From Methanothermobacter thermautotrophicus str. Delta H (GTDB lineage Archaea > Methanobacteriota > Methanobacteria > Methanobacteriales > Methanothermobacteraceae): a stretch of 32,000 bases of DNA. Of the stretch, positions 5,132-27,331 are shown one piece after another (positions within the stretch are counted from its first letter, which is position 1; each line of letters starts with the position of its first letter). The translations under genes and the position numbers were made by a program. The stretch covers positions 450,001-482,000 of the forward strand of contig NC_000916.1 of the NCBI RefSeq assembly GCF_000008645.1, given 5' to 3'. The notes beneath the pieces were generated by a model. The model was not told the origin of the DNA. It made no database searches and saw only the letters and a list, made by a program, of their open reading frames with translations.

Positions 5132-6553
5132 CTAGCCATACCTTACCTCTCCAAACCTCTGGAGTATATCCATCTCCTCCTCACCTATCTCAGGGTCTCC
5201 CCTTAGTATCACGGGTATCTCGCTGAGGGGCTTTGCCCTTGTAACATCGTTTTTGAGTCTCTGGTACACCGCGTTTATGGCCCACCCATAATCCATATCC
5301 CCGGAATCAGTAACCCAGAGGACGTCTATGTCAGCATTTCTCGCCCTCTTAGATTCCTCGTCCCACATGCTGATGAATAACCTGTCTTCCTGCCTCCATG
5401 AGTATTCCTCATCACCTATTATGCCCACAACCTCCCTTACTCCATCCTCAAGGAATTTTGAGTGGCCGCAGACACGGCAGACCACGAACTGGCCCTCAGG
5501 TGTGTGGATCTTTTTGGGTTTGAACAGGTCCCTCCCGCATATGAGGGTCTGATAATCCTCCTTAAGAGCCCTCTGAGCCTTTTTCAACCTCTCAATGGCC
5601 CTCCTGGCAGCTATCCTGACCCCCTCCCCAGGGTCATTGAGGGCCTCCCTCAGCACATCAAGGGCCACGGCATCCCCTGCCTCTCCAAGGTAATCAGCGG
5701 CCCGCGCCCTGACCTCAGGGTCATGGGAGTTTCTGAGGTACCCCATGATCCTCTCCATGGCCTCCACGTATCCATCCATGTCATGAGGGTCAAGGTCCCT
5801 GAAGGCCCTCCTGAGGTCCTCTGCCTCACCACCGGCTCCTGCCTCCTGTCTTCCATTGATGTAGGTGCAGATGGAGCGGAATATGCAGAGACTGCAGAGA
5901 TTGTTCTCCCTTGGAGGGAACTCCTCCCGCCTTATCCTCTCAGCCACGTCCTCAAGGAGCCCCTCGATGTCTGCTGCCGGTTCTATCAGGTGCCATTCTG
6001 AATCCTCAAAGGTGTAGGCCAGGAAGCCGTCGAAGTCAAGGTCCAGGGCGTGCCTGTACACTCCCAGCTGGAGTTCAATGTCCCGTGCATGGATGCCCGA
6101 CCCTGACATTGACTTGAAGTCCACCAGCTCCAGGCCGCCTTCACGGTTCCTTATGATGAGGTCTGTCTGACCAGTTATCATGAAGCCGTCCTTCATTATG
6201 CTGAAGGGCTTCTCTGCAGAGACTATCTCTGATGCGCGGCCCCTTATCTCCTCAAGGTAGCGTTTTAGTTTTGATATGAATGCCCTGAATCCATCAGGGG
6301 ACATTTCGATGTCCCTGAGTGCATGTGATGCCAGTTCCTGAAGGTAATCATCTGTCACAGCCTCGCCACGCATCAGGCGCCTGTTTATCCTCCGGAGGCA
6401 CTCATGGACCGCTATACCGTAGAGCTGGTCCCTGGTTGAGGGGACGTCGAATCCGTACTCATAGAGCAGCATGTACCTGAAGGGGCAGGTGAGGTAGGTG
6501 TTGAGCTCTGTGAAGCTGATCCTGAAGATCTCCCTGGTCTCAATGTCCTCCAA
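5132..6553 (-). CDS. Cas4/AddB-like PD-(D/E)XK nuclease with 4-Cys (Fe-S type) signature, fused to HEAT-like repeats and a C-terminal Cys-pair domain
   Basis: N-terminal Cys (LTCPFRY), core QTDLII..LELVDFKS, and C-x2-C-x5-C (CSLCIFRSIC). Then EVRARAADYLGEAGDAVALDVLREALNDPGEGVRIAARRAIERL (PBS-lyase/HEAT type). Then CGRD..x18..CRVCGH plus about 110 aa with no match I recognise. The gene overlaps the helicase gene by 14 nt. Confidence 0.7.
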   Translation of the reverse strand: MEDIETREIFRISFTELNTYLTCPFRYMLLYEYGFDVPSTRDQLYGIAVHECLRRINRRLMRGEAVTDDYLQELASHALRDIEMSPDGFRAFISKLKRYLEEIRGRASEIVSAEKPFSIMKDGFMITGQTDLIIRNREGGLELVDFKSMSGSGIHARDIELQLGVYRHALDLDFDGFLAYTFEDSEWHLIEPAADIEGLLEDVAERIRREEFPPRENNLCSLCIFRSICTYINGRQEAGAGGEAEDLRRAFRDLDPHDMDGYVEAMERIMGYLRNSHDPEVRARAADYLGEAGDAVALDVLREALNDPGEGVRIAARRAIERLKKAQRALKEDYQTLICGRDLFKPKKIHTPEGQFVVCRVCGHSKFLEDGVREVVGIIGDEEYSWRQEDRLFISMWDEESKRARNADIDVLWVTDSGDMDYGWAINAVYQRLKNDVTRAKPLSEIPVILRGDPEIGEEEMDILQRFGEVRYG

Positions 6554-8582
6554 CCTGGCAGCTGTTCTTTATGATCTCTATCCTGGCATCCTCTGGGTCT
6601 ATCCTCCCCAGCCTGTCACTGGTTATCCTTGAAGTTTTGATGAGATCCTCTATGAACTCCGAGTAACCGATCCGGCCCCTGTGGTTTTTGGTTGCTGATA
6701 CTATGAGCATGTCCTGGGCCCGGGTCATCCCCACATAGAAGAGGCGCCTCTCCTCGATCTCATCAGTCCTCATGGTGCTCCTACGGAGTTCCTCGGGTAA
6801 TTCGAGTTCACTCCTCTCCCGGACCTTCCTGGGGAATTTCCCGTTGAATACAGAGCATATTATGACCACCGGAAACTCGAGGCCCTTGGCCCTGTGCATT
6901 GTCATTATGTTGACTGAGTAGGGGTTATCAAGGAGTATCTGGTCGTACTTTTTGATTCTACCCGACATGGCCATCCTTATGAACTCCATGAGGCCCTCCA
7001 CGCCTGGCTCCAGGGATATGCGCTCGTAGTCCTTTATGAGTGAGCTGAACCTTGCCAGGTTGTAGAGCTTCTCCCTTGACTCATCATCACCCCTCTCAAG
7101 GAGCCTGTGGGGGTACTCTGTCAGTTCAAGGATCTCATAGTACCTCTCAAGTACTCCGAGGTCGCTGTCGATGAGTCTGTTGAGGGCCACAAGTTTCCTG
7201 ATGTCATCGGGGTCTGTGAATCCTGCCCCCCTGAATTCCCTGTGCTCCCTGAGGCCCCTTAATTCCTCCTCATCCATGTCCAGGATGCGGTTGACGCTGC
7301 CGGGGGTCAGGTCCATGAACTCGCCCTCAAGGTGTTCGTATTTCAGTTTTCTGATTATCTTCCTCCTCTCATTCCGGGTGTGGTGGAGGAGGTGCATGAT
7401 GTAGAGTATTTCCTCCCGGTCAAAGAAGCCTCCCTCACCGTATACATTGAAGGGTATGCCCTCCCTGCGTAGTTCATTCATTATCTCCACTGCATCGTGC
7501 TTCACGCTTCTGAAGAGGAGGGTCACGTAGCCCTGGTGGGGTATTACACCGTGGTCAACGAGGGCCCTTATTATTCCCACCACATTGGATGGTTCATCCT
7601 GGTGTGTGGGGTTGTCCAGGATGAATACCCTGTTCTCTGAGTCCCTCACGGGCCTTATGTCCTTGGGGTACTCTCTGTAACCATCCATGAACCGCTGGGT
7701 GACGTCAACTATGCTGGGGACGGACCTGAAGTTCTTCTCAAGCATGACAACCTCGGCACCGTACTTCTTCTGGAAGCCCAGGAAGTTTTCGGGGGTGGAT
7801 CCCCTGAAACCGTAGATGCTCTGGTCCTCGTCTCCAACAGCGAAGATGTTGCATTCCTCCCCTGCCAGGAGTTCAAGGAACCTCTCCTGTATCTGGTTGG
7901 TGTCCTGGTACTCGTCCACCATGAGGAACCTGTACCTTGACCTGAGGTCATCCAGGATCTTACTGTCGTTTTCAAGGAGTCTGACGACCCTCCACTGCAT
8001 CCCTGCAAAGTCAAGCAGGCCGTTCTCATCCATGAGGTTGAGGTACCTCTGGTAGGCCTCTGCAACGGTCATCTCGAACCTCCCTGCACCCTTATTTCTG
8101 TAGTGCTGGATCAGGGTCTCGGGGTCGACCATGTTCTCCTGGCACTCGCTGAAGAAGCCCTGGATGAGGGGGAACCTCTCCCTCTGTACATTGCCAAGTC
8201 CCAGCTGTTCCCTGTGTTCGTATATGAACATGAGCTGGTTTTCCTCATCCAGGACATGGAAGTTTGAGCCGAGGGTGTGGTGGTCGGGGTACATGCGGAG
8301 TATGCGGTTGCAGAAGGAGTGTATGGTTGATATCTGCATCTCCTCTGCCCTTCCACCCACACGTCTGATTATCCTCTCCTTGAGTTCATCTGCGGCCTTC
8401 CTGGTGAAGGTTATCACGACCAGGGATGATGGTTCAGCACCCCTCTCATCTATGAGGTGGGCGACCCTCTCCACTATGATCCTGGTCTTCCCGGCCCCCG
8501 GCCCTGCAACAACGAGGAGGGGTCCGGTGAAGTGTTCAACTGCTCTGCGCTGTTCATCTGTGAGCTGAATCTCCCCTGTCAT
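6540..8582 (-). CDS. UvrD/Rep/PcrA-family superfamily-1 DNA helicase
   Basis: LTDEQRRAVEH, Walker A GPGAGKT, VVITFTRKAADEL, MVDEYQDTNQIQ, VGDEDQSIYGFRG and MTMHRAKGLEFPVV motifs. ATG 8582 (8 nt after GGGG) is preferred over GTG 8591. Confidence 0.9.
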   Translation of the reverse strand: MTGEIQLTDEQRRAVEHFTGPLLVVAGPGAGKTRIIVERVAHLIDERGAEPSSLVVITFTRKAADELKERIIRRVGGRAEEMQISTIHSFCNRILRMYPDHHTLGSNFHVLDEENQLMFIYEHREQLGLGNVQRERFPLIQGFFSECQENMVDPETLIQHYRNKGAGRFEMTVAEAYQRYLNLMDENGLLDFAGMQWRVVRLLENDSKILDDLRSRYRFLMVDEYQDTNQIQERFLELLAGEECNIFAVGDEDQSIYGFRGSTPENFLGFQKKYGAEVVMLEKNFRSVPSIVDVTQRFMDGYREYPKDIRPVRDSENRVFILDNPTHQDEPSNVVGIIRALVDHGVIPHQGYVTLLFRSVKHDAVEIMNELRREGIPFNVYGEGGFFDREEILYIMHLLHHTRNERRKIIRKLKYEHLEGEFMDLTPGSVNRILDMDEEELRGLREHREFRGAGFTDPDDIRKLVALNRLIDSDLGVLERYYEILELTEYPHRLLERGDDESREKLYNLARFSSLIKDYERISLEPGVEGLMEFIRMAMSGRIKKYDQILLDNPYSVNIMTMHRAKGLEFPVVIICSVFNGKFPRKVRERSELELPEELRRSTMRTDEIEERRLFYVGMTRAQDMLIVSATKNHRGRIGYSEFIEDLIKTSRITSDRLGRIDPEDARIEIIKNSCQVGGH

Positions 8583-8623
8583 GAATGGCACCCCATAAAT
8601 GTTATTCTATGGTTTCCATCCAC

Positions 8624-9977: not shown

Positions 9978-12900
9978 ATCAGGAGATTAATAGCACTGCT
10001 TGCAGTGATACTCACAGTTTCACTCACAGGAGCTGTCAGTGCAGCAGAGGTGACAGGACACGTCAGGGAGATATACAATGAAACATCAGGGAGCTACACA
10101 ACCCTGGAAGGTGCGCTACCAGTCAGAAACGCCACTGTAACCATAATACATAACGGATCTGTTCTCAATGAGACACGTACAGCGCCGGATGGCTCATACA
10201 GAATCAACTTCAACGACACATTCCCTGCGGTTGTCCAGATAAAGTATTCCAGCTACAGGACAGCCAGCTACACCATCAACGGCTCATGCACCATCAACCA
10301 CACCTTCATGCCAGATATAGCCATAATAAGTTCGGTTCCAGAGAAGGGCCGCATCCTCAAATCAATGGAGAACCGGAGGATAATCTACCATGACATGTGG
10401 GATCCATCATCATCGGCAAACGACTGGATAATGGAGTACGTGAACTTCGCCTACCTGGACATGGCCATGCCCGGGACAGGATGGGGCGACTCATGGTACC
10501 CCTACCTTCTGAGGAGCCCTGCGAACCAGAGGAACATGATAGCAGCGGCCTTCGGTTACCCCACCGATACAGACAGCGACCATGGGGGGGCACGGGGCTG
10601 AACCTCCTCGGAGGGACACCCGGCAATGACACCCCCGGTACCATTGAGAACACCTACATTGCAAGCTACTATGCCCTTGCATCAGGAACAGCTGCCAGGG
10701 AGAACCTGGAGAACATGGTGAAGTACATCCAGTACCTCATGGGTGAGACCACATCCAACCCAGTGGAGAACGGCCAGGGCCCGGTTATGGCAGCCCCTGA
10801 CTGGGGACTATACCACCCTGACCGTGGCGTCATGAGCGTCGCAGCAAGCAGGGAGCAGATAAGAACCTGGATAGAGGGCAACCCGGGACTCATCCCACCC
10901 TATGACAGCCTCAGGTGGATAGACCAGAACTTCTCATCATGGGCAGAAAACCAGCGAAACGATGTCTACAGAGAATTTGAGAACTGGTACAGTGCAAACA
11001 AGAACATCACAGGACCCTTCATCGTCGTTGTAAGCTACAACCCATCAAACACCGTGGATGCCATAATCCGGGAGGCTGAGAGGCAGGGAAGGGCAGCATT
11101 CAACCTCTACCAGGGTGCCACCAGCCCCGCAGTGAGTTCCCTCCTCGAGGAGCTCACACTGGGTGTCAACGGTAAGGGGCCCCTGAACCGTAACATAAGC
11201 GCCGTCATATCCCTCTACTCCTGGTCCCTCAACTACGCGAACCTGCCATCCGGCGGGGCCCTCAGCGAACTTGAGAGGATCAATCTGCCCGTACTGAAGG
11301 CTGTGCAGCTCTACAGCAACTCAAGCCTGACAAACCCCCTGGGTGCACAGTACGAGTGGACCTGGCAGGTCACAATACCCGGATTTGAGGGCGTGTTCTC
11401 ACCCGTGGTTGTATCATACACCGATTCATCACAGAATGAGGTCGTGATTCAGTCAGGGGTCCGGAAGATGGTCGAACTGGCGAATGCATGGGCCAGACTC
11501 AGGGAACTTGAAAATTCAGAGAAGAAAATTGCGGTGATACTCTACAGCTACCCTCCGGGTAAGGATGGATTCACGGCATCATACCTTGACGTCTTCAGGA
11601 GCCTCCATGAACTCCTTGTGAAGCTCAATGAAAGCGGCTACAGGGTTGAGAGGATACCATCACCTGAGGAGCTCTACACCATCGTCTCAGAGTTCGGTAA
11701 TAAGGGCACCTGGGCCCAGCCACTTCTTGAGAGGTATGTGTCAGAGCACAGGAGGGAGCTGGAAGCCAGAGGTCAGCTGCTCGACATCCAGAGGTACCTT
11801 GAATGGTTCAACGCCCTCCCTGAGAAGCTGCGCTCAGAGGTCATATCAAGGTGGGGCCAGCCCCCAGGCAACATAATGACGGTTAACGGGTCCATCGTCA
11901 TCCCTGGTCTGATGCTGGGGAACATCTTCATAACTGTCCAGCCGGCCCGTGGCTGGGATGAGGTCACAGACTACCATAACCCATATCTGCCACCCCACCA
12001 CCAGTACCTGGCCTTCTACCGCTGGATCGATGAGGTCCTAGGCGCCGATGCCATGGTCCACCTGGGGACCCATGGAACCCTCGAGTTCCTCCCGGGAAGG
12101 ATGATCGGCCTCATGGAGGATGACTGGCCCTTCCAGCTCACCAGTCTGCCCAACATATACCCATACATAGTCTCAAACCCTGGTGAGGGAATGGTGGCAA
12201 AGGACCGCAGCGGTGCACTCATCATAGACCACATGACACCTGCAATGGTCCAGAGTGGCCTCTACGGTGCACTCATTGAGATCCACGACCTCATCCACCA
12301 GTACGAGAACGCCCTTAAGGTCGGTAACAACCAGATACTCCCTGCACTGGAATCCCGGATAAAGACTGAGGCCTCAGAGATGGGCTTCAACATGACCGGT
12401 AACTTCACAGAGGCCCTTGAGAGACTCCACCTCAGTCTACATGAGATAGAGTCAGACATAATACCCCTGGGACTCCACAGCCTCGGCAGGGTCCTTGAGG
12501 GTGACGAGCTCCTGGAGGAGGTTCTCACCATAGCATCATCAAGGTCAGATCTCCTCGAGAATATCAGGAAACAGCTCTATCCGGGTCTGCCAGCCTACAC
12601 TGAGATGCTGAAGGACCCACTGCGCTACAGTGACGAGATAGCCTCAGTGAAGAACCTTGCACGTCTATGGATAGGCAGCATCATAAACGGTACTGTGCCC
12701 TCCGGGATAAATGCCACGGACCTTGAGTTCATCAATGACACCATCATGAAGATACGTGGAAACACCGAATGGCAGAGCATCCTCGCAGCGCTCTCAGGTG
12801 GATTCATAAGACCTGGACTTGCAGGGGACCCTGCCTGGTGTGACGTACTTCCAACAGGCGCCAACTTCTACTCAACAAACCCCAGGAAGATGCCCACAAG

Positions 12901-14448
12901 GGCTGCATGGGAGACCGCAGTGAGGATAGTTGATTCGATGCTTGCAGAGTACTACCAGAAGCATGGCAGCTTCCCTGAACTCATCGGTATGGTTATGTGG
13001 GGCACTGAACTCCTGAGGACCGACGGGATAGCCATTGCAGAGTTCCTATACCTTCTCGGAGTTAAACCCCAGTGGAACAGTAACGGTGACGTCAACCCAG
13101 CCCCGGTCCTCATGAATGCATCAGAACTCATGATAACAGTGAACGGTACCCGGATACCAAGGCCACGTATAGACGTATTTGTAACAGCAGTCACAGGTAA
13201 CCAGCTCTGGATAGACCTCATGAATAAGGCCGTTGAACTTGCAGCTTCAGCCAGTGACACCGAGAACTATGTGAAAAAACATTACAGTGAATGCGGATCC
13301 CTTGACCGTGTATTCGGTCTCAGGGGACTCGTACTCGAGGGTACTGGTGTATCTGATATGACACCTGCAACCTCAAGGTGGAACACCAGCAGTGAACTCG
13401 CAGACGTCTACCTGTCAAGGGTATCCTATGCCTGGAGGTCCACCCCAGGAGGCGTGGATATACAGCAGAACCGGGGCACGTTCCAGTACCTCCTGGGTAA
13501 GGTGAACCTGGTGACACAGAACCTGGACAGCACATGGAGGCTGATGGACACCGACGACTACTATGACTGGTTCGGTGGAATGGTCCTCGCATCAAGGCAC
13601 CTGGGAGGTAACCCCGATACAGCTCTTATAGATATAAGGAACAGGAACACGGTTACAGTGAGAACGGTGGCCGAGGAGATTGAACTTGAGATCAGATCCC
13701 AGCTCCTCAACCCCAAGTACATGGATTCCCTCCTCAATCACCCAGCGGGTGGCTTGAATATGCTTCAAGGTACAAAAATGTCTTTGGAATTGCAGTTACA
13801 ACCGGCAGCGTCAGCAATGAACTCTGGGACCAGCTCGCAAGGAACCTTCTGAGTGACCGCTTCAGGGCATCCGGGGGCTATGAGGCCACTGCAACACAGT
13901 CCATGATTGCCTGGGTCCTTGAAGCCGCAAGGAGAAACATCTGGAGCGCCGACGGTTCCCTGGTGAGGGATCTTGCAAACCGTTACATTGAACTCGCAGG
14001 AGAGTACGGTGTTGTCTGCTGCCACCACACCTGCGCAAACATTGTCTTCAATAACTGGGTGGTGAAGGTCTCATCCCTCAACCAGGCATCCCTCAAGAAG
14101 TTTGCAGCTGCACTGGCTGCAGCCACAGGGAAGTCCATTGATGTCCCTGGCTCTGATGGTTCACAGCCAGGATCAGCAAATGATGGTAGTGGGGTCGGCG
14201 AGACAGGTAAACCGGATTCAGGTTCCGCAGGATCTGCAGGTAGCAGTTCATCAGGCAGTGCATCCACTTCATCATCAGATGCTGCTGGAGAGTCATCATC
14301 CAGTGAAGGAAGAGAATCAGGGAAGGCCTATGAGGTTTCAGCCTCAAATAGCAGCGGTTCAGCAGAGAGTCAGGTGCCCCTCTATGCAATTCTGGGTGTC
14401 GTGGCACTTGTACTGCTCGTAGGATTTGGTTACTTCAGGGGTAAATAA
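9978..14448 (+). CDS. Large secreted, C-terminally membrane-anchored CobN/Mg-chelatase-H-like protein (signal peptide + CarboxypepD_reg-like domain + CobN body + Ser/Gly linker + TM); split by two frameshifts as assembled
   Basis: Track fragments 10005..10601, 10397..13852 and 13903..14448 form one reading. DSDHGG|TGLNLLGG joins across the G7 run at 10584-10590, and LLNH|PSGWLEYASRYKNVFGIAVTTG joins across the C-run at 13741-13743. CobN signatures: MVHLGTHGTLEFLPGR and DVLPTGANFYSTNPRKMPTRAAWE. N-terminus (I)RRLIALLAVILTVSLTGAVSA-AE. Many N-x-S/T sequons. C-terminal VPLYAILGVVALVLLVGFGYFRGK. Confidence 0.85.
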
Positions 14449-20013: not shown

Positions 20014-20700
20014 ATGGTTGATGTGTGCGGTGTTAATGGATACGATGAGATCTCAGGAAAACTGAAGGACCTCCTGGGGCTTGAAAAATCCCCGGTGGCA
20101 ATTAAACTCGTTCTGAGGGAGGATGACCTCCCTGAGGGTGTTGAAAAGATAGGAAAACCAGCAAGGCACTGTGAAATGGTCCAGATGGCTGCAGCTGGTG
20201 AGGTATTCTATGCCACCGCAGAGGCCCAGGCATGCAAGGGAGGTGCCGATGCCCTCGGAATCGATGAGGCCCCTGAGAAGGTCAAAACAGGAGAGTTCTA
20301 CTATGACCTTGGACGTTTTGCAAGCTTTGCATCAGCCAAGAGGACCTTCGATAGGATACCATCCGTTGACCTCAGGTTCTATGCAGCAGTCTACGCTCCC
20401 CTCGAGAAGGCCACATTCGACCCTGACGTCATAGTGATAATCTGCAACCCTGCCCAGGCCATGAAGATCTCACAGGCCCTCGTATACACCCTCGGTGGCC
20501 GTGTGGAGGCAGACTTCTCAGGCATTCAGTCCCTCTGTGCAGATGCCGTTGCAGGGCCATACATGAGGAAGAGACCCAACATAACCATGGGATGCAGCGG
20601 ATCAAGGCAGTACGCGGGTGTGCGGGACGATGAACTCATTGTCGGTCTTAACGGTGAAAACATAGGATGTGTCCTTAACGCCCTTGAGGCCATAAGCTAG
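20014..20700 (+). CDS. DUF169 family protein
   Basis: SPVAIKLV...P.G.....KPARHCEMVQMAAAGEVFYAT.EAQACKGGADALGI ... DPDVIVIICNPAQAMKISQAL ... ITMGCSGSRQYAGVRDDELIVGL matches the DUF169 pattern as I recall it. Perfect GAGGTGATCCA-ATG. Confidence 0.7.
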   Translation: MVDVCGVNGYDEISGKLKDLLGLEKSPVAIKLVLREDDLPEGVEKIGKPARHCEMVQMAAAGEVFYATAEAQACKGGADALGIDEAPEKVKTGEFYYDLGRFASFASAKRTFDRIPSVDLRFYAAVYAPLEKATFDPDVIVIICNPAQAMKISQALVYTLGGRVEADFSGIQSLCADAVAGPYMRKRPNITMGCSGSRQYAGVRDDELIVGLNGENIGCVLNALEAIS

Positions 20701-20720: not shown

Positions 20721-20930
20721 GTGGTTGAGACGAAGACCTTCAGGATCCTTGAGGATGTTGCCGACCTTGAGGAGAAGATAAAGAAGTATGAGGGTGAGGC
20801 AGACCAGGAACTTGTGATCAACTGGATCTACGACACCCTTGAGATCCTCAGGAACGTCGGTAAACTCCTCGAGGAGGTTGAGGACCGTCTGGATCTACTT
20901 GAAGAGGAGACCGAGGAAAAGAAATTCTAG
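20721..20930 (+). CDS. Small acidic coiled-coil protein, function unknown
   Basis: GTG start in the canonical SD register (GGGGTGATAAA-GTG). 69 aa, Glu/Leu-rich. Confidence 0.5.
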   Translation: MVETKTFRILEDVADLEEKIKKYEGEADQELVINWIYDTLEILRNVGKLLEEVEDRLDLLEEETEEKKF

Positions 20931-21012: not shown

Positions 21013-21678
21013 CTAATTTCCATCAGCATTGGTCCTGAGAAAATGGTCTCTTATCCTCAGGTAGTCACTGTAATGGTTTATGTTCACAAGCTCAATGGGG
21101 CGAGAGGCCTCCACACCATAGAGCCTCACACCGTCCTCCAGCATCATCCAGAGGAGGGGGTTTATGTTGCCATCCCCAAGGGGCAGGTAATCCCTGAGGA
21201 GATCGGCACCTGCTGCAAGGGGCATGCCGATCCCCCGGGCATTATCAAGCCAGCCACTCTCACCCCTCGCAAGGATTGAAACCGTGGACCCATCAGCATG
21301 TTCAGCTATCCTCCTGAGGGTTGCAGGTGATACCGCAGGCTGGTCCCCTGCGGCACAGAGGATTATGTCCCCCCCTGCGGCCCTCACACCCCTCAGTAGT
21401 GACGCTGACAGGGGAACATCCACGGGGTCGTTTCTCACCACACGGACATCCATGCCTGAGAGGGCCTCCTCAACCTCCCCTGCCCTGTGGCCGGTCACGA
21501 CTATGCACTCATCAACCCCCGCCGAGAGGACAGCCTTAACTGTGGCCTCTATGACGGTCACCCCATTGAGGGGGAGCAGGAGTTTGTGGACCGGTTCGAG
21601 GCCAAGTTCAGCCATATCCCGCATCATCCTGCTTCCCCTGCCGGCTGCAGCAACAACAGCTGAGATCATATTACCCAC
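21013..21678 (-). CDS. MobA/MocA-like nucleotidyltransferase (NTP_transf_3 type)
   Basis: ISAVVAAAGRGSRM (G-x-G-x-R-M NTP loop), LL.L.G, VVTGH, and LCAAGDQPAVSPATLRRI (the D-x-P motif). The GTG follows the VanW-like stop codon directly. ATG 21669 is an alternative start. Confidence 0.7.
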   Translation of the reverse strand: MGNMISAVVAAAGRGSRMMRDMAELGLEPVHKLLLPLNGVTVIEATVKAVLSAGVDECIVVTGHRAGEVEEALSGMDVRVVRNDPVDVPLSASLLRGVRAAGGDIILCAAGDQPAVSPATLRRIAEHADGSTVSILARGESGWLDNARGIGMPLAAGADLLRDYLPLGDGNINPLLWMMLEDGVRLYGVEASRPIELVNINHYSDYLRIRDHFLRTNADGN

Positions 21679-22847
21679 CTATGCCGGTTCAAGCCTGTAT
21701 AACCTGGCGTATATCCTTGTATTGGCACCTGAACCCGTTGTCCACATCTCTATGAGTACCGGGTATTTCCCTGTGTTCCGGACCTTTATACCTGTTGCCG
21801 GGTTGAAGCCAAAGAGGACCGCATGGAACTCCCAGGTCATACCCCGCGGGAGGGGCATGCCAGCCGAGGTCACGATGGCCCTCAGGGCCCTTGCAGGTGG
21901 GCATGAACCATGGGATGCATAACCCCCGGGGGCTTCAGGGTCCCTTGATGCTGTGAATCTCACGGTCTCCTTACCCGAGGCCTCACTGCCAGGCGGGATT
22001 ATGGTCCCGTTCCATGCTGAGGCGAAGGCCCTCGCATTGAAGGCCCTCCTGTTATCATCGTACTGGGGGTAGAATCCAAGGTAACTCACTGCACTGGATA
22101 CAAGGGACCTCCTGCTGTTATCAATGTAAACCATCACAGGTGAACCAGAGGGGTAGTTCTCCATGTACTCAAGCACGGTATCGCCAAAGAGTTTCTCTAT
22201 CATCCCTGGAGGTACAGGGAGCCTTCCGTCGCTGAAGTTTGAGAGCTGGTAGTCCAGCGCAATCCTGTCGCCCTCATCGGCCCTCCTGTACCATCTCTTT
22301 ATCCTCTCAATGGATCTGTACCGGTGGGGGACTGTGCTGTTGCTTATGCTCCCTGCCGGTACAAAACGGACCCTTTTTCCATTTTCAACTATCTCCACAC
22401 CATCCTTCCTTTTAACCCCGTAGGTGTAGGGTGTCTTGTAGGCCCAGAGGAAGGTGGGGGGCTCCTCCACCACGAGCCTCTCCCCCTGCACCCTGAGGGA
22501 CCCCGGACCGCTGACGGCGGACCTGCCACTTGCATCCACACCCTCTGTCATCTCGGATATGGGGACATGAACGGCTCCTGTCAGCACGGCCTGGAGGAGG
22601 TTTGATGGGTTGAAGTAGTTGAATTCGTCAAGGATGTAGTCAGGGTGCAGCATGATGGGCACGCTCCTCACCCTGGACTCGTCGATGACGTCCTGGCCCT
22701 CAAGTACTGTACTGCCCAGGGCAGGGCCGCTATCTCCACAGGGTTCTGGGGTTCAACCGTTCCCTCAAGGTACCGGCCGCCAGCCGCTGCAGCTGCAACC
22801 AGAATTATTAAAATGATGACGTGTTTACCTGATAGACTCCTCAGCAT
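21679..22847 (-). CDS. VanW-like domain protein with N-terminal TM anchor; N-terminus frameshifted as assembled
   Basis: C-terminal SHGSCPPARALRAIVTSAGMPL ... GIKVRNTGKYPVLIEMWTT parallels the VanW pattern GGG-x-CQ-x-S..L....AGL ... +F+NTT..P..I..W.T. ATG 22847 reads MLRSLSGKHVIILIILVAAAAAGGRYLEG.. (TM) in another frame, with the frame switch somewhere in 22671-22752. This start overlaps the ligase stop by 23 nt. Confidence 0.6.
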
Positions 22848-25813
22848 ACCTGTATCCCCCCTCTCCTATTATGAGCACCGTGTCATCAGGTCCTGCAAGT
22901 TCAAGGGCCTTCCTGACGGCCTCAGCTACCTGCTCCCTGCTGGCACCCAGGGTGCCTCCACCGGCCCTCATCCTGCTGGACCCTATGTGGACCGCTCTCT
23001 CTCCAAGGATGTCTGAGGCCCTCCTGGCGGCGTAGGATGCTGGTATGACCACATCCGCATCCTTGAGGATCGCTGCAATCTCCCTGTCCCCATCGATCCC
23101 GCTCTCAGATGCCACGGTGTTGACCACTATGAGTCTGCCCTTTCCCCTGAGGTCCTGCATCACTGCCCTGACACCTGCAGGGTTGTGGGCGTAGTCCAGG
23201 ATTATCCTGGGCGACTCTGAGAGTTCCTGGAACCTCCCCGGGACGCCTTTGAATGATTCCAGACCCCGGACTATGTCATCAATTTCCAGTCCCATGGTCC
23301 ATGCGGTTGCAGCTGCCGCCAAGGCGTTGTAGACATTGAATATCCCGGGGGTTGCAAGCCTTACCTCCCTCATCTCCTGACCGATTACGAGCTTGAAGCC
23401 CCCGGGGGATGCCTCGATGGCCATGACATCTGGCTGGGGTCTCAGGTACCCGCAGATGCACTGGTAGTCGCCGAGGTGCCCAATGGTTCTCCTGGTGTAC
23501 CTGAGGGGCTTCCCGCACTTGGGGCACTCCCTGCCCTCAGGCACCACGCCACCGGATTCAGAGCTCTGTATGCCATAGAACACAACCCTCTCACGGGGGA
23601 GTCCGTCTGCAAGGGAGGCTACAATGGGGTCATCTGCATTCAGGACAAGGTCCTCTGCAACCTCCACCATTTCACCCTTGCATTCAATGTAGTCAGAGAA
23701 TCTCCGCCCAGCTGAGAGGTGGTCCCTTGATATGTTTGTTATAACACCCACCGAGACACCTGAGAGCATCGCGGAGCTTCTTATCTCCCCCCTCCTGCCG
23801 AAGGTACCTATCTCAACGACGGCGACGTCACCCGGCAGCCTTGCCTGGAGGGCAGGTACAAGTTCAGTGTTTCCCTGGATGTTCAGGTGGTGCTCCGGGA
23901 CCCTCATACCTGCAACCCGCATTATGGATTTGAGCATGCCAGTGGTTGTTGTTTTCCCGTTTGTCCCTGTAACACCCACCACCGGTTTATCCACAGGGCA
24001 CATGTTGAGTACGTCCTCAACACCTATGACGTCGGCGTCAAGGCCACCTGTGAGGTCAAGGATCTTCCGGTTATTCTCAAGGGCAGGTGTTATGGCCACC
24101 GTCCTCGCCCTCCTGAGTATCTCAGGGTCATGTCCTCCGAGGTCGAGGTGTATGCCCTCCTCCCTCAGCACATCCGCCAGGGGTGTGTCCTCCCGGAGAT
24201 TCCGAGACCACGACCCTGTGGCCCCGGGCCTGAGGTTTCTTGCCATCAGGTCTCCGACGTTCCCCAGACCCCCAAGGACGACCACACAGTCCTCCACGGA
24301 TTTCAGGGCCTCCTCTATGTCGGACCTTACATTTTCGTAGGTGTTGACAACCCCGGGGCCTATGTGAAGGATGGTGTCCCCTGGCTCCGCGATCTCAAGG
24401 GCCCTCCTTATGCTGTCGTATACGCTCTCAGTCTTTATGGTCCTCTCCTCGCCGGCGCCCCACGCCACCTCATCGGCGGCCTCCATGTCTGTGACGCCTG
24501 TTGTCTCGTTCTTTGCACTTACGATGATGGTGTGGGCCCTCTCAGCCAGCACCCTCCCTATCCTTTCCTTGTCCCTCACCGTGAGGGTGTCAGGGTTGTC
24601 GAGGCTCACTATGAGTCTGCCCTGGAACTCCATGCCCTCGAAGAGTTTCTCCATGCTCTCGGGGTTGTGGGCTGCGTCCATGTATACCCTGACACCGTCA
24701 ACCTCGTCTATGAACTCAAATCTGCCCCTTATGCCCCTGAAGTCCTCGATACTCCTCTTAATATCCTCCATGTCGAATCCGAGTATGAGTGCGACGGTTA
24801 TGGCTGCGAGGGCATTTTCAATGTTGAATATGCCCGGGACCCTGAGGTTTATCCTCTCCCTCAGGGGCCCCACAGAGACGGCCTCATCATGTTTCCTGCA
24901 GTTGAGGGCTCCGCAGGTGCTGCAGATGGCTGTCTGTATCTCTGATACATTCAGGGTGAAGGTGGATCCTGCAAGTCCCCTCAGCTCTATATCGGAGGCC
25001 CTGACCTGGATACTGGCTGAGCATGAATCTCCTTCCCATGAATTCAACGGTCCTCCTCTCACCCACACCATAGACCACATTTTCTACTTCAAGGTCGTCC
25101 AGGAGGCTCGATATGACCGGGTCATCACCACATAGTGCCAGAACTCCGCCAGGAGCCATGAGGTCCTTTATTGAGAAGTTCCTCTCAATGTACTCATCGT
25201 AGTTACTGAATTCGTCCATGTGATCCGGTGTGAGGTTTGTCACAACCCCTGCTGAGAGTTCAAGGCCCTCAGCCATCCTTATCGTCCCGTGGGGGAGTTC
25301 AAACACTGCAAGATCCCTGTCGTCGATATCCCCATTTACCACAAGTTCCACGAGGCCCTCTATCACCAGTGAATCCTGGAGTGATGAGAATGATACTGTC
25401 CTGTAACGTGAGGAGAGGATGTGGTCTATCATGTTGGTTGTCGTGGTCTTCCCATCGGTTCCCGCAACTCCGACCATTGGGAGCCCTATGAGTTCATTGA
25501 GGGTCCTCCCTATATCAGAGGTTGTTATGTGGACCAGGTCCCCTGCTTCCCTTACCATTTTACGTACCGGTGCGTCCTGGGGGATGTTGGGTGATATGAA
25601 AACAGCGTCAGCCCAGAGTATGTCCTCCATGCTGTGACCCCCGAACCTGAACATCACGCCCTCATCCTCCATCTCAGCTATCCTCTTCTGGGCCTTCAGG
25701 GGTAGTTCATGGAGTTCCCTGACGTCGTTCACAAGTACCCTGTTGTTCAGGTGGTTGAGCAATCTCGCTGCGGGTCTACCTGCGTTTCCAGCTCCAATCA
25801 CAAGCACTTTCAT
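22825..25813 (-). CDS. Tandem double Mur-ligase-family protein (pseudomurein peptide ligase type); the second unit carries a MurT-type Cys4 zinc ribbon; frameshifted as assembled
   Basis: Track ORFs 24887..25825 and 22825..25080 overlap and join near 25030-25045. Unit 1: MKVLVIGAGNAG.. + GVAGTDGKTTTT + ..DAAHNPESM... Unit 2 (from about 24297): VVVLGGLGNVG + GVTGTNGKTTTT + ECPKCGKPLRYTRRTIGHLGDYQCICGYLRPQP + DYAHNPAGV. There is no stop codon between the units. Confidence 0.8.
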
Positions 25814-26116
25814 GTTCCTGATCAATTAAATGCACCCATAAACGTTTTTATTAAACACGCGTTCCTTCCTGATTAATCTGTGAATAAGAGTCACCTGATG
25901 GCACCCGTCCTGACCGAGGTAGTGGGTGTACCTATGGATCATTCGGTGGGATATCTACCAGAGGCAGTCTACCTAAAGATCCTCACCCGGGAGGATATGT
26001 ATCCACCCATAGACACTCTACCTATAAAGATATGTTCTCATCCTATATAGCTATCAGATCCCGGGTCAGGCATCTGGCTCAGTAATCCATGAACTCCCTG
26101 GAGTGTTAGAGGTGAT

Positions 26117-27331
26117 CTAGAGACAGGATGCAAGTCCCTCAAGTTCCTCCTGGACCCGGATTATCACATCCTGACCGTTACCAGCCACAAGTATCCTCCT
26201 GTACTCCCTGGAGAACTCCCTCACCATTTCAGGGATATCCCCCGGGTCATGGACAGTCAGGATCTCTGATGGAATCCTGAGGCTCTTAAGGTGCTCAAGG
26301 GCCATGTCAACTGTATCATCGAGGCCCGGGAAGAGTACCAGGATTTCGGGTGGAGACTCTGCGATTTCATCAAGAATCCCCAGGCGCCACTCCTCTGATC
26401 TTCGTGGTGTGCCAAGGAATATGACATCAAAATTAGATTCCCTGAGCAGTGCCCTCATGGCGTGGGGGTTATCGGTTTTACCTGCAACTACCAGTGCATC
26501 GTTTACACTGAAGGACCTTATACGGCCAGCCACCGGTCTGAATACTGAGAGGTGCCTGGAGATGACTTCTGAGGGTACCCCGAGGAATTCCAGTGCCTCT
26601 GCAGCGGCCCCAGCGTTGAGCCTGTTGAACTCCCCCTCCAGGACGAGTTCGCCCCTGTAGGGGGTGTACTCCATGACACTGCTGGCCCCTGATGTTAGTT
26701 CCTCCAGGTGGGGTTCATCTGCAGAGATCACCACAGCCCTGCCCTCCAGGAAGCTGGCCACTGATTCCCTGTAGTTCTCCATGGAGCCATGGAAGTTCAG
26801 GTGGTCCTCGCCGAGGTTTGTGATGACGGCCAGATCAATATCGAAGCACTCAGATGCGAATTCAAGGGTCATGTCGCAGACCTCAACCACGATGTAATCG
26901 AATTCCTCCTCAGCTGCCCTCAGGATTACCTCTGTGTATCCATCAAAGCCTCCCCCGGCGTTTCCACCGAGAAGGACCCTCCAGCCTGAACTCTCCAGTA
27001 CATGTGCTATCATTGACGCCGTCGTGGTCTTCCCGTTGGTCCCTGTAACTGCAACGGTGACAGGGACCCTGTGCCCCCTGAGTACCCTGCAGAGAAGCCT
27101 GTCACTGAAGCTCTCCCAGAGCCCCGTGCCAAAGATCGAGGGGCTCAGCACCACAGCATCCGATGATGCTATCCTTTCGGTGTCATGGAAGCCCAGGTCA
27201 ACGTCCACACCCTCGAGGTTCAGATCAATGTCCGCCCTTATATCACTGGCGTATACCCTGTGTCCCCTCCTCCTGAGGGATTCAACAGCCTTTAAACCCT
27301 CAGCTCCAAGTCCCAGAACCGCAACCTTCAT
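26117..27331 (-). CDS. Mur-ligase-family protein (MurD-like N-terminal Rossmann domain; pseudomurein peptide ligase type)
   Basis: MKVAVLGLGAEG, AVTGTNGKTTT (P-loop), ITNLGEDHL, and a C-terminal domain. CGGTGAATCA-ATG is in the canonical SD register. Confidence 0.85.
   Translation of the reverse strand: MKVAVLGLGAEGLKAVESLRRRGHRVYASDIRADIDLNLEGVDVDLGFHDTERIASSDAVVLSPSIFGTGLWESFSDRLLCRVLRGHRVPVTVAVTGTNGKTTTASMIAHVLESSGWRVLLGGNAGGGFDGYTEVILRAAEEEFDYIVVEVCDMTLEFASECFDIDLAVITNLGEDHLNFHGSMENYRESVASFLEGRAVVISADEPHLEELTSGASSVMEYTPYRGELVLEGEFNRLNAGAAAEALEFLGVPSEVISRHLSVFRPVAGRIRSFSVNDALVVAGKTDNPHAMRALLRESNFDVIFLGTPRRSEEWRLGILDEIAESPPEILVLFPGLDDTVDMALEHLKSLRIPSEILTVHDPGDIPEMVREFSREYRRILVAGNGQDVIIRVQEELEGLASCL

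Follow-up and report, generated by a model that had tools for sequence, protein, structure and literature searches.

The window is a stretch of 32,000 nucleotides from the genome of Methanothermobacter thermautotrophicus str. Delta H. On its minus strand it carries a genuine open reading frame of 221 codons, which runs from 21678 to 21013 and occupies that whole interval. A plus-strand reading of 21013-21678 was rejected, as several stops fall at the same coordinates. The reading frame corresponds to pmurB, and together with the genes upstream of it, it forms the cluster listed here.

21013..21669, minus strand: pmurB (Mth528, Mfer334 family), nucleotidyltransferase gene; assigned from NF053639, identity to 6PLJ and conservation of the start
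21676..21680, minus strand: AGGTG, a Shine-Dalgarno-like sequence of putative function, which overlaps the pmurA stop and lies 6 nt before the ATG at 21669
21679..22847, minus strand: pmurA (Mfer335 family), encoding an N-terminal membrane anchor and a C-terminal VanW-like domain; NF053640, 493 bits against a cut-off of 400
22825..25825, minus strand: pMurD1-pMurC fusion ligase gene; partial matches to NF053646 and NF053645, and a DNA alignment with a relative
26117..27331, minus strand: pMurD2 peptide ligase gene, the first gene of the cluster; NF053647, 558.7 bits against a cut-off of 550

The sequence of the pmurA/pmurB junction is TAG-GTG-GGT-AAT-ATG. This agrees with the initial annotation, which had placed a GTG directly against the upstream stop codon and an ATG 9 nt further on. 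Translation from the GTG at 21678 would yield a product of 221 aa, and translation from the ATG at 21669 a product of 218 aa. We consider the ATG the likelier start, because the orthologue starts exactly 9 nt past the pmurA stop in two genomes of the same genus (with ATG and TTG, respectively) and because AGGTG lies 6 nt ahead of it. The construct crystallised as 6PLJ began at the GTG, not at the ATG.

In the nomenclature of Subedi 2021 the cluster in the window is cluster 1 type 1A, and in that of Lupo 2025 it is cluster B. The start of pmurA (ATG at 22847) and the end of pMurC, with its stop, overlap by 23 nt. Compared with the intact genes in other Methanothermobacter genomes, pmurA has a 1-nt frameshift here (1 nt missing) near 22720-22725, and pMurD1-pMurC, which is a single frame of 1011 codons in another Methanothermobacter genome, is interrupted by a gap of 2 nt near 25023. 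Both frameshifts are probably sequencing errors. Between pMurD2 and pMurD1, the ~290 nt at 25826-26116 contain no open reading frame of at least 90 aa and are AT-rich near pMurD1; this gap could possibly hold an internal promoter. On the other side of pmurB, a small acidic open reading frame of 69 codons (20721-20930, plus strand) follows a DUF169 gene (20014-20700) and converges on pmurB, and an oligo-T run comes after it.

The pmurB product is identical to chain A of PDB 6PLJ, an entry whose title names Mth528 of Methanothermobacter thermautotrophicus. It matches the NCBIfam family NF053639, 'pseudomurein biosynthesis protein PmurB', over profile positions 1-209 of 209, with 262.6 bits against a cut-off of 260, and it also matches Pfam NTP_transf_3 well beyond chance (E 1.4e-24, 87.6 bits against 27). 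The gene thus encodes the pseudomurein enzyme PmurB (Mfer334), which already has a name and a crystal structure. The role suggested for it initially, to attach a uridine nucleotide to the glutamate with which the wall peptide begins, was already published in 2021 and was assayed in part in 2026. We found no difference of substance between the window gene and this family (NF053639; 6PLJ), which Lupo 2025 (PMC11915815) recovered as OG0001146. In detail, PmurB of this lineage has AAGRGSRM where most family members have AAGKNxRM, and it is without an insertion of ~6 residues that other members have near position 126. The initial annotation had stated that the enzyme forming the UDP-activated glutamate is not assigned; this is contradicted by the proposal of Subedi 2021 (PMC10117817), the NCBIfam name, the PDB entry 6PLJ and the assay of Cha 2026 (PMC12996149).

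The catalytic residues of the window protein are intact. It contains the loop AAAGRGSRM (residues 10-18, counted from the GTG), the lysine of a KLL motif, GDQP and a late NIN. Thus, the G-x-G-x-R-M and D-x-P motifs named in the initial annotation are both present, but G-x-G-x-R-M is not a motif of the family, as it was found in 6 of 103 PmurB sequences. The family form is AAG-K-N-x-RM, with AAGKNSRM in 55 and AAGKNRRM in 29 of the 103. Using ATG numbering, G10, R14, K29, D109-Q-P and N196-x-N198 are invariant (G10, R14, K29 and D109 in 23 sequences). Invariant residues specific to PmurB are found in the C-terminal half (R135, G139, G146, M149, N170, P171, Y184 and E193), and these probably shape the acceptor site, with a putative role in glutamate binding.

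An AlphaFold model of PmurB (pLDDT 94.7) matches 6PLJ with a Z of 38 and an rmsd of 0.9. The next structural matches are GlmU domains (Z 24.0, rmsd 2.3, 206 aligned residues), followed by IspD (Z 22.6) and Rv0371c-like proteins (Z 22.3), all of which are NMP-to-phosphate transferases. PmurB has the Rossmann-like fold, the N-terminal Gly/Arg loop, the Lys and the metal-binding Asp of the GlmU-like nucleotidyltransferases. In our own alignment its nucleotide pocket is MocA-like, or pyrimidine-like (AAG, N80, DQP), and not MobA-like (CGG, DKG, GPLxG, CDxP); a pyrimidine nucleotide would therefore fit.

These comparisons place PmurB among three known groups. As its best structural matches, the sugar-1-phosphate uridylyltransferases GlmU and MurU (Z 22-24, rmsd 2.2-2.6) have the same presumed chemistry, NTP + R-phosphate, with UTP; PmurB differs from them in having ~20% identity, no acetyltransferase domain and, as proposed, an amino-acid phosphoramidate as the acceptor in place of a sugar phosphate. 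The nearest group by sequence is MocA/PucB, which has AAG, N80, DQP, G-x-P and a late N/D-x-N/D in common with PmurB, whereas PmurB is a separate, long-branched clade with family-specific insertions at 16-27 and 135-146. MobA belongs to the same superfamily and has the Arg-Met loop, the Lys and D-x-P, but its pocket motifs L-C/A-GG, D-K-G, GPLxG and CDxP are absent from PmurB.

NF053639 was above its cut-off in 223 of 230 Methanobacteriota genomes and in none of 14 control genomes, which include two methanogens without pseudomurein. The Methanobacteriota genomes that missed the cut-off comprise one divergent member and fragmentary assemblies. All 10 genomes examined for copy number have a single PmurB, and the PmurB clade is confined to pseudomurein-containing methanogens, as seen in the tree and the genome survey and, for Methanopyrus, as described in PMC10117817. 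The gene is linked to the pMur genes. Coupling to the ligase operon had been noted initially and is borne out both in the window, where pMurD2, pMurD1 and pMurC lie upstream, and in relatives, where a pMur ligase was present within 6 kb upstream of pmurB at 70 of 70 loci. Furthermore, pmurA was directly upstream on the same strand at 40 of 41 short loci and 78 of 78 longer loci. Because the genomes are related and the sets of loci overlap, these counts speak for order-wide conservation of the linkage and are not independent trials.

It had been suggested as an alternative that PmurB is simply a MobA- or MocA-type molybdopterin nucleotidyltransferase, present in the operon by chance. The Pfam NTP_transf_3 match is consistent with this, as are MocA being the second-best NCBIfam family (68 bits) and a weak grouping with MocA-like proteins (89/76), on which we do not rely since the bootstrap of that tree did not converge. 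We nevertheless give this explanation almost no weight. The MobA profiles TIGR02665/NF001457 score 25.4 bits on PmurB against a cut-off of 151.85, and the guanine-pocket motifs are absent; the MocA profile TIGR03310 scores 68.4 bits against 186.45 and covers the N-terminal part only. The initial annotation had called for a phylogeny and a search for a second mobA in the genome. In the tree, the PmurB sequences make up a clade of their own (100/99), distinct from that of MobA (100/99), and among the nine NTP_transf_3 matches of the genome there is a separate mobA-like gene at genome positions 94807-95397, whose seven best matches are all MobA families (97-104 bits, under the cut-offs). Its product and PmurB barely align (E 0.028). 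A molybdenum enzyme of the xanthine-oxidase family (MCD), the client of MocA, sought with PF02738 (MoCoBD_1), was found in none of 61 genomes of the phylum, while 6 of the 14 controls were positive. Orthologues of the mobA-like gene are present in 55 of these 61 genomes and in 0 of 6 genomes of the genus labelled g23. This genus has no match for MobA (0/6), MoaC (0/4) or MoeA (0/4), yet PmurB is kept there at E 1e-82 to 1e-91; the four genomes searched for MoaC and MoeA are 99% complete, and a control genome was positive for both. Loss of Moco synthesis has been published for Methanosphaera, with the same pattern as in g23, and we infer that g23 is Methanosphaera. PmurB is independent of the Moco genes, and because it is retained in genomes without MobA, MoaC or MoeA matches, a role in molybdenum cofactor synthesis is very unlikely. 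The conserved position of pmurB in the operon across the order also argues against placement by chance.

The gene directly upstream, pmurA, had been called VanW-like. Pfam VanW matches to PmurA orthologues are faint (7 of 21, best E 0.012), the ESM feature matches of PmurA are all VanW (0.92-0.93), and the nearest non-self shapes are VanW clusters (TM 0.34-0.41 by query). A comparison of the PmurA model with solved structures gave no clear relative, the best Z being 5.7 (as of 2024, structures of VanW were not known). The evidence for the label is remote. The orthologues of PmurA share a hydrophobic helix at the N terminus and the motif H-G-x-C-P, which is invariant, and VanW domains have been described as cysteine L,D-transpeptidases (PMC11348318). 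It seems more likely that PmurA is an outward-facing cross-linking or trimming enzyme, a candidate transpeptidase, than that it is the kinase partner of PmurB, and the adjacency of pmurA and pmurB therefore does not imply consecutive steps. A role of PMurA as glutamate kinase, proposed in 2026, was tested in Cha 2026 (PMC12996149), with no product.

The UDP-N-Glu pathway is based on intermediates that were isolated in the early 1990s, and the classical route passes through N-alpha-P-Glu (PMC11915815). [quoted passage not shown] In Cha 2026 (PMC12996149), PMurB of M. ruminantium was expressed, and UMP-Glu + ATP gave UDP as well as a mass that was attributed to phospho-Glu. The only substrate was the analogue UMP-Glu, which is one phosphate short, and the reaction was not run in the forward direction; the conditions were phosphate buffer, 12 h and 20 uM enzyme, and the reaction is described inconsistently. 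On these data, which are weak, the assignment of PmurB to UDP-N-Glu formation is plausible, not proven.

In the pseudomurein peptide pathway PmurB would act as the uridylyltransferase, presumably in the cytoplasm and dependent on Mg2+, and there is good reason to think that its reaction is UTP + N-phospho-L-Glu -> UDP-N-Glu + PPi. Enzymes of this fold (GlmU, IspD, MobA) attach an NMP to an acceptor that carries a phosphate and release PPi in the process, and the NMP is normally moved onto a phosphate oxygen, not an amine. We propose N-phospho-Glu as the acceptor because the fold uses phosphorylated acceptors and because the classical route runs via N-alpha-P-Glu. UTP would be bound in a GlmU/MocA-type Rossmann pocket formed by the AAG-x-x-x-RM loop, Lys29, Asp109-Gln-Pro and Asn196-x-Asn198 (ATG numbering), and the phosphoramidate oxygen of N-alpha-phospho-L-glutamate would attack the alpha-phosphate, yielding UDP-N-alpha-glutamate and PPi. 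The former would then serve as the handle for the pMur ligases encoded alongside, which would extend it with amino acids. Both the UTP specificity and the identity of the acceptor are presumed; UTP and CTP cannot be told apart on the basis of sequence alone. The N-phosphoryl donor would probably be, as Subedi 2021 and Lupo 2025 proposed, an ATP-grasp enzyme encoded in the second cluster, and not PmurA. The initial annotation is supported in part: the gene is taken to encode a nucleotidyltransferase of the pseudomurein pathway and not a Moco enzyme. The step, however, was already assigned, and in the assay that the annotation proposed, UTP with free L-Glu, the acceptor is probably the wrong one. 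Free Glu would yield UMP-Glu, not the reported UDP form, and such an assay could therefore give a false negative.

Within the pseudomurein pathway, PmurB might instead activate a sugar phosphate or a linker in the manner of GlmU or MurU, for example the second wall amino sugar or a recycled fragment. Its top structural matches are, after all, domains of GlmU, and its synteny and distribution suit any pseudomurein step equally. A recent preprint reportedly revises the wall sugar and the peptide linkage; the classical pathway would then be open to question again, which would count in favour of such an acceptor. We consider it unlikely, however, given that pmurB is linked to peptide ligases and not to glycan genes, that the PmurB sequence is closer to MocA-like than to GlmU-like proteins and that several further NTP_transf_3-type genes in the genome have the size (293-426 aa) and motif of sugar nucleotidyltransferases. 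In addition, the acceptor chamber of PMurB was too small for MurNAc in the docking of Cha 2026 (PMC12996149). A sugar or linker acceptor, if true, would call for a revision of the classical route via UDP-N-glutamate and of the interpretation given in 2026.

It is also conceivable, but in our judgement quite improbable, that PmurB activates an amino acid or small phospho-acceptor with CTP or at another step, for example by direct transfer of UMP to an amine group, in free Glu or in a peptide, as the assay in the initial annotation assumes. Such a transfer would depart from the usual preference of the fold for a phosphate oxygen over an amine, and the reported intermediates are UDP-linked. Points on the other side are that MocA-like cytidylyltransferases are the nearest sequence relatives of PmurB and that UMP-Glu was accepted by both PMurB and PMurC (Cha 2026, PMC12996149).

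For inhibitors specific to methanogens, the first committed steps in the synthesis of pseudomurein are attractive targets, and PmurB is single-copy (10 genomes), nearly universal in Methanobacteriales and already crystallised. Since the hypothesis on its role has been published, the present finding adds little to it. What is of some use is that PmurB persists in a genus lacking Moco synthesis, a strong argument against MobA/MocA, and that the decisive assay, in the forward direction, needs N-phospho-glutamate.

Among metagenomic proteins, we observed some of 411-581 aa that join a degenerate PmurB domain, in which the NTP loop is lost, to a DUF2254 membrane domain and that are nested in the PmurB clade. 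These are probably paralogues that have lost activity and been re-employed as a binding domain. Elsewhere in the window, a large chelatase-like gene, CobN-type by appearance (10005-14448, plus strand), seems to be split over the overlapping open reading frames 10005-10601, 10397-13852 and 13903-14448, which suggests further assembly frameshifts. Finally, at 5132-8591 on the minus strand, a gene for a UvrD/Rep-like helicase (6540-8591) adjoins one for a RecB-like nuclease with HEAT-like repeats (5132-6553), as judged from their translations.
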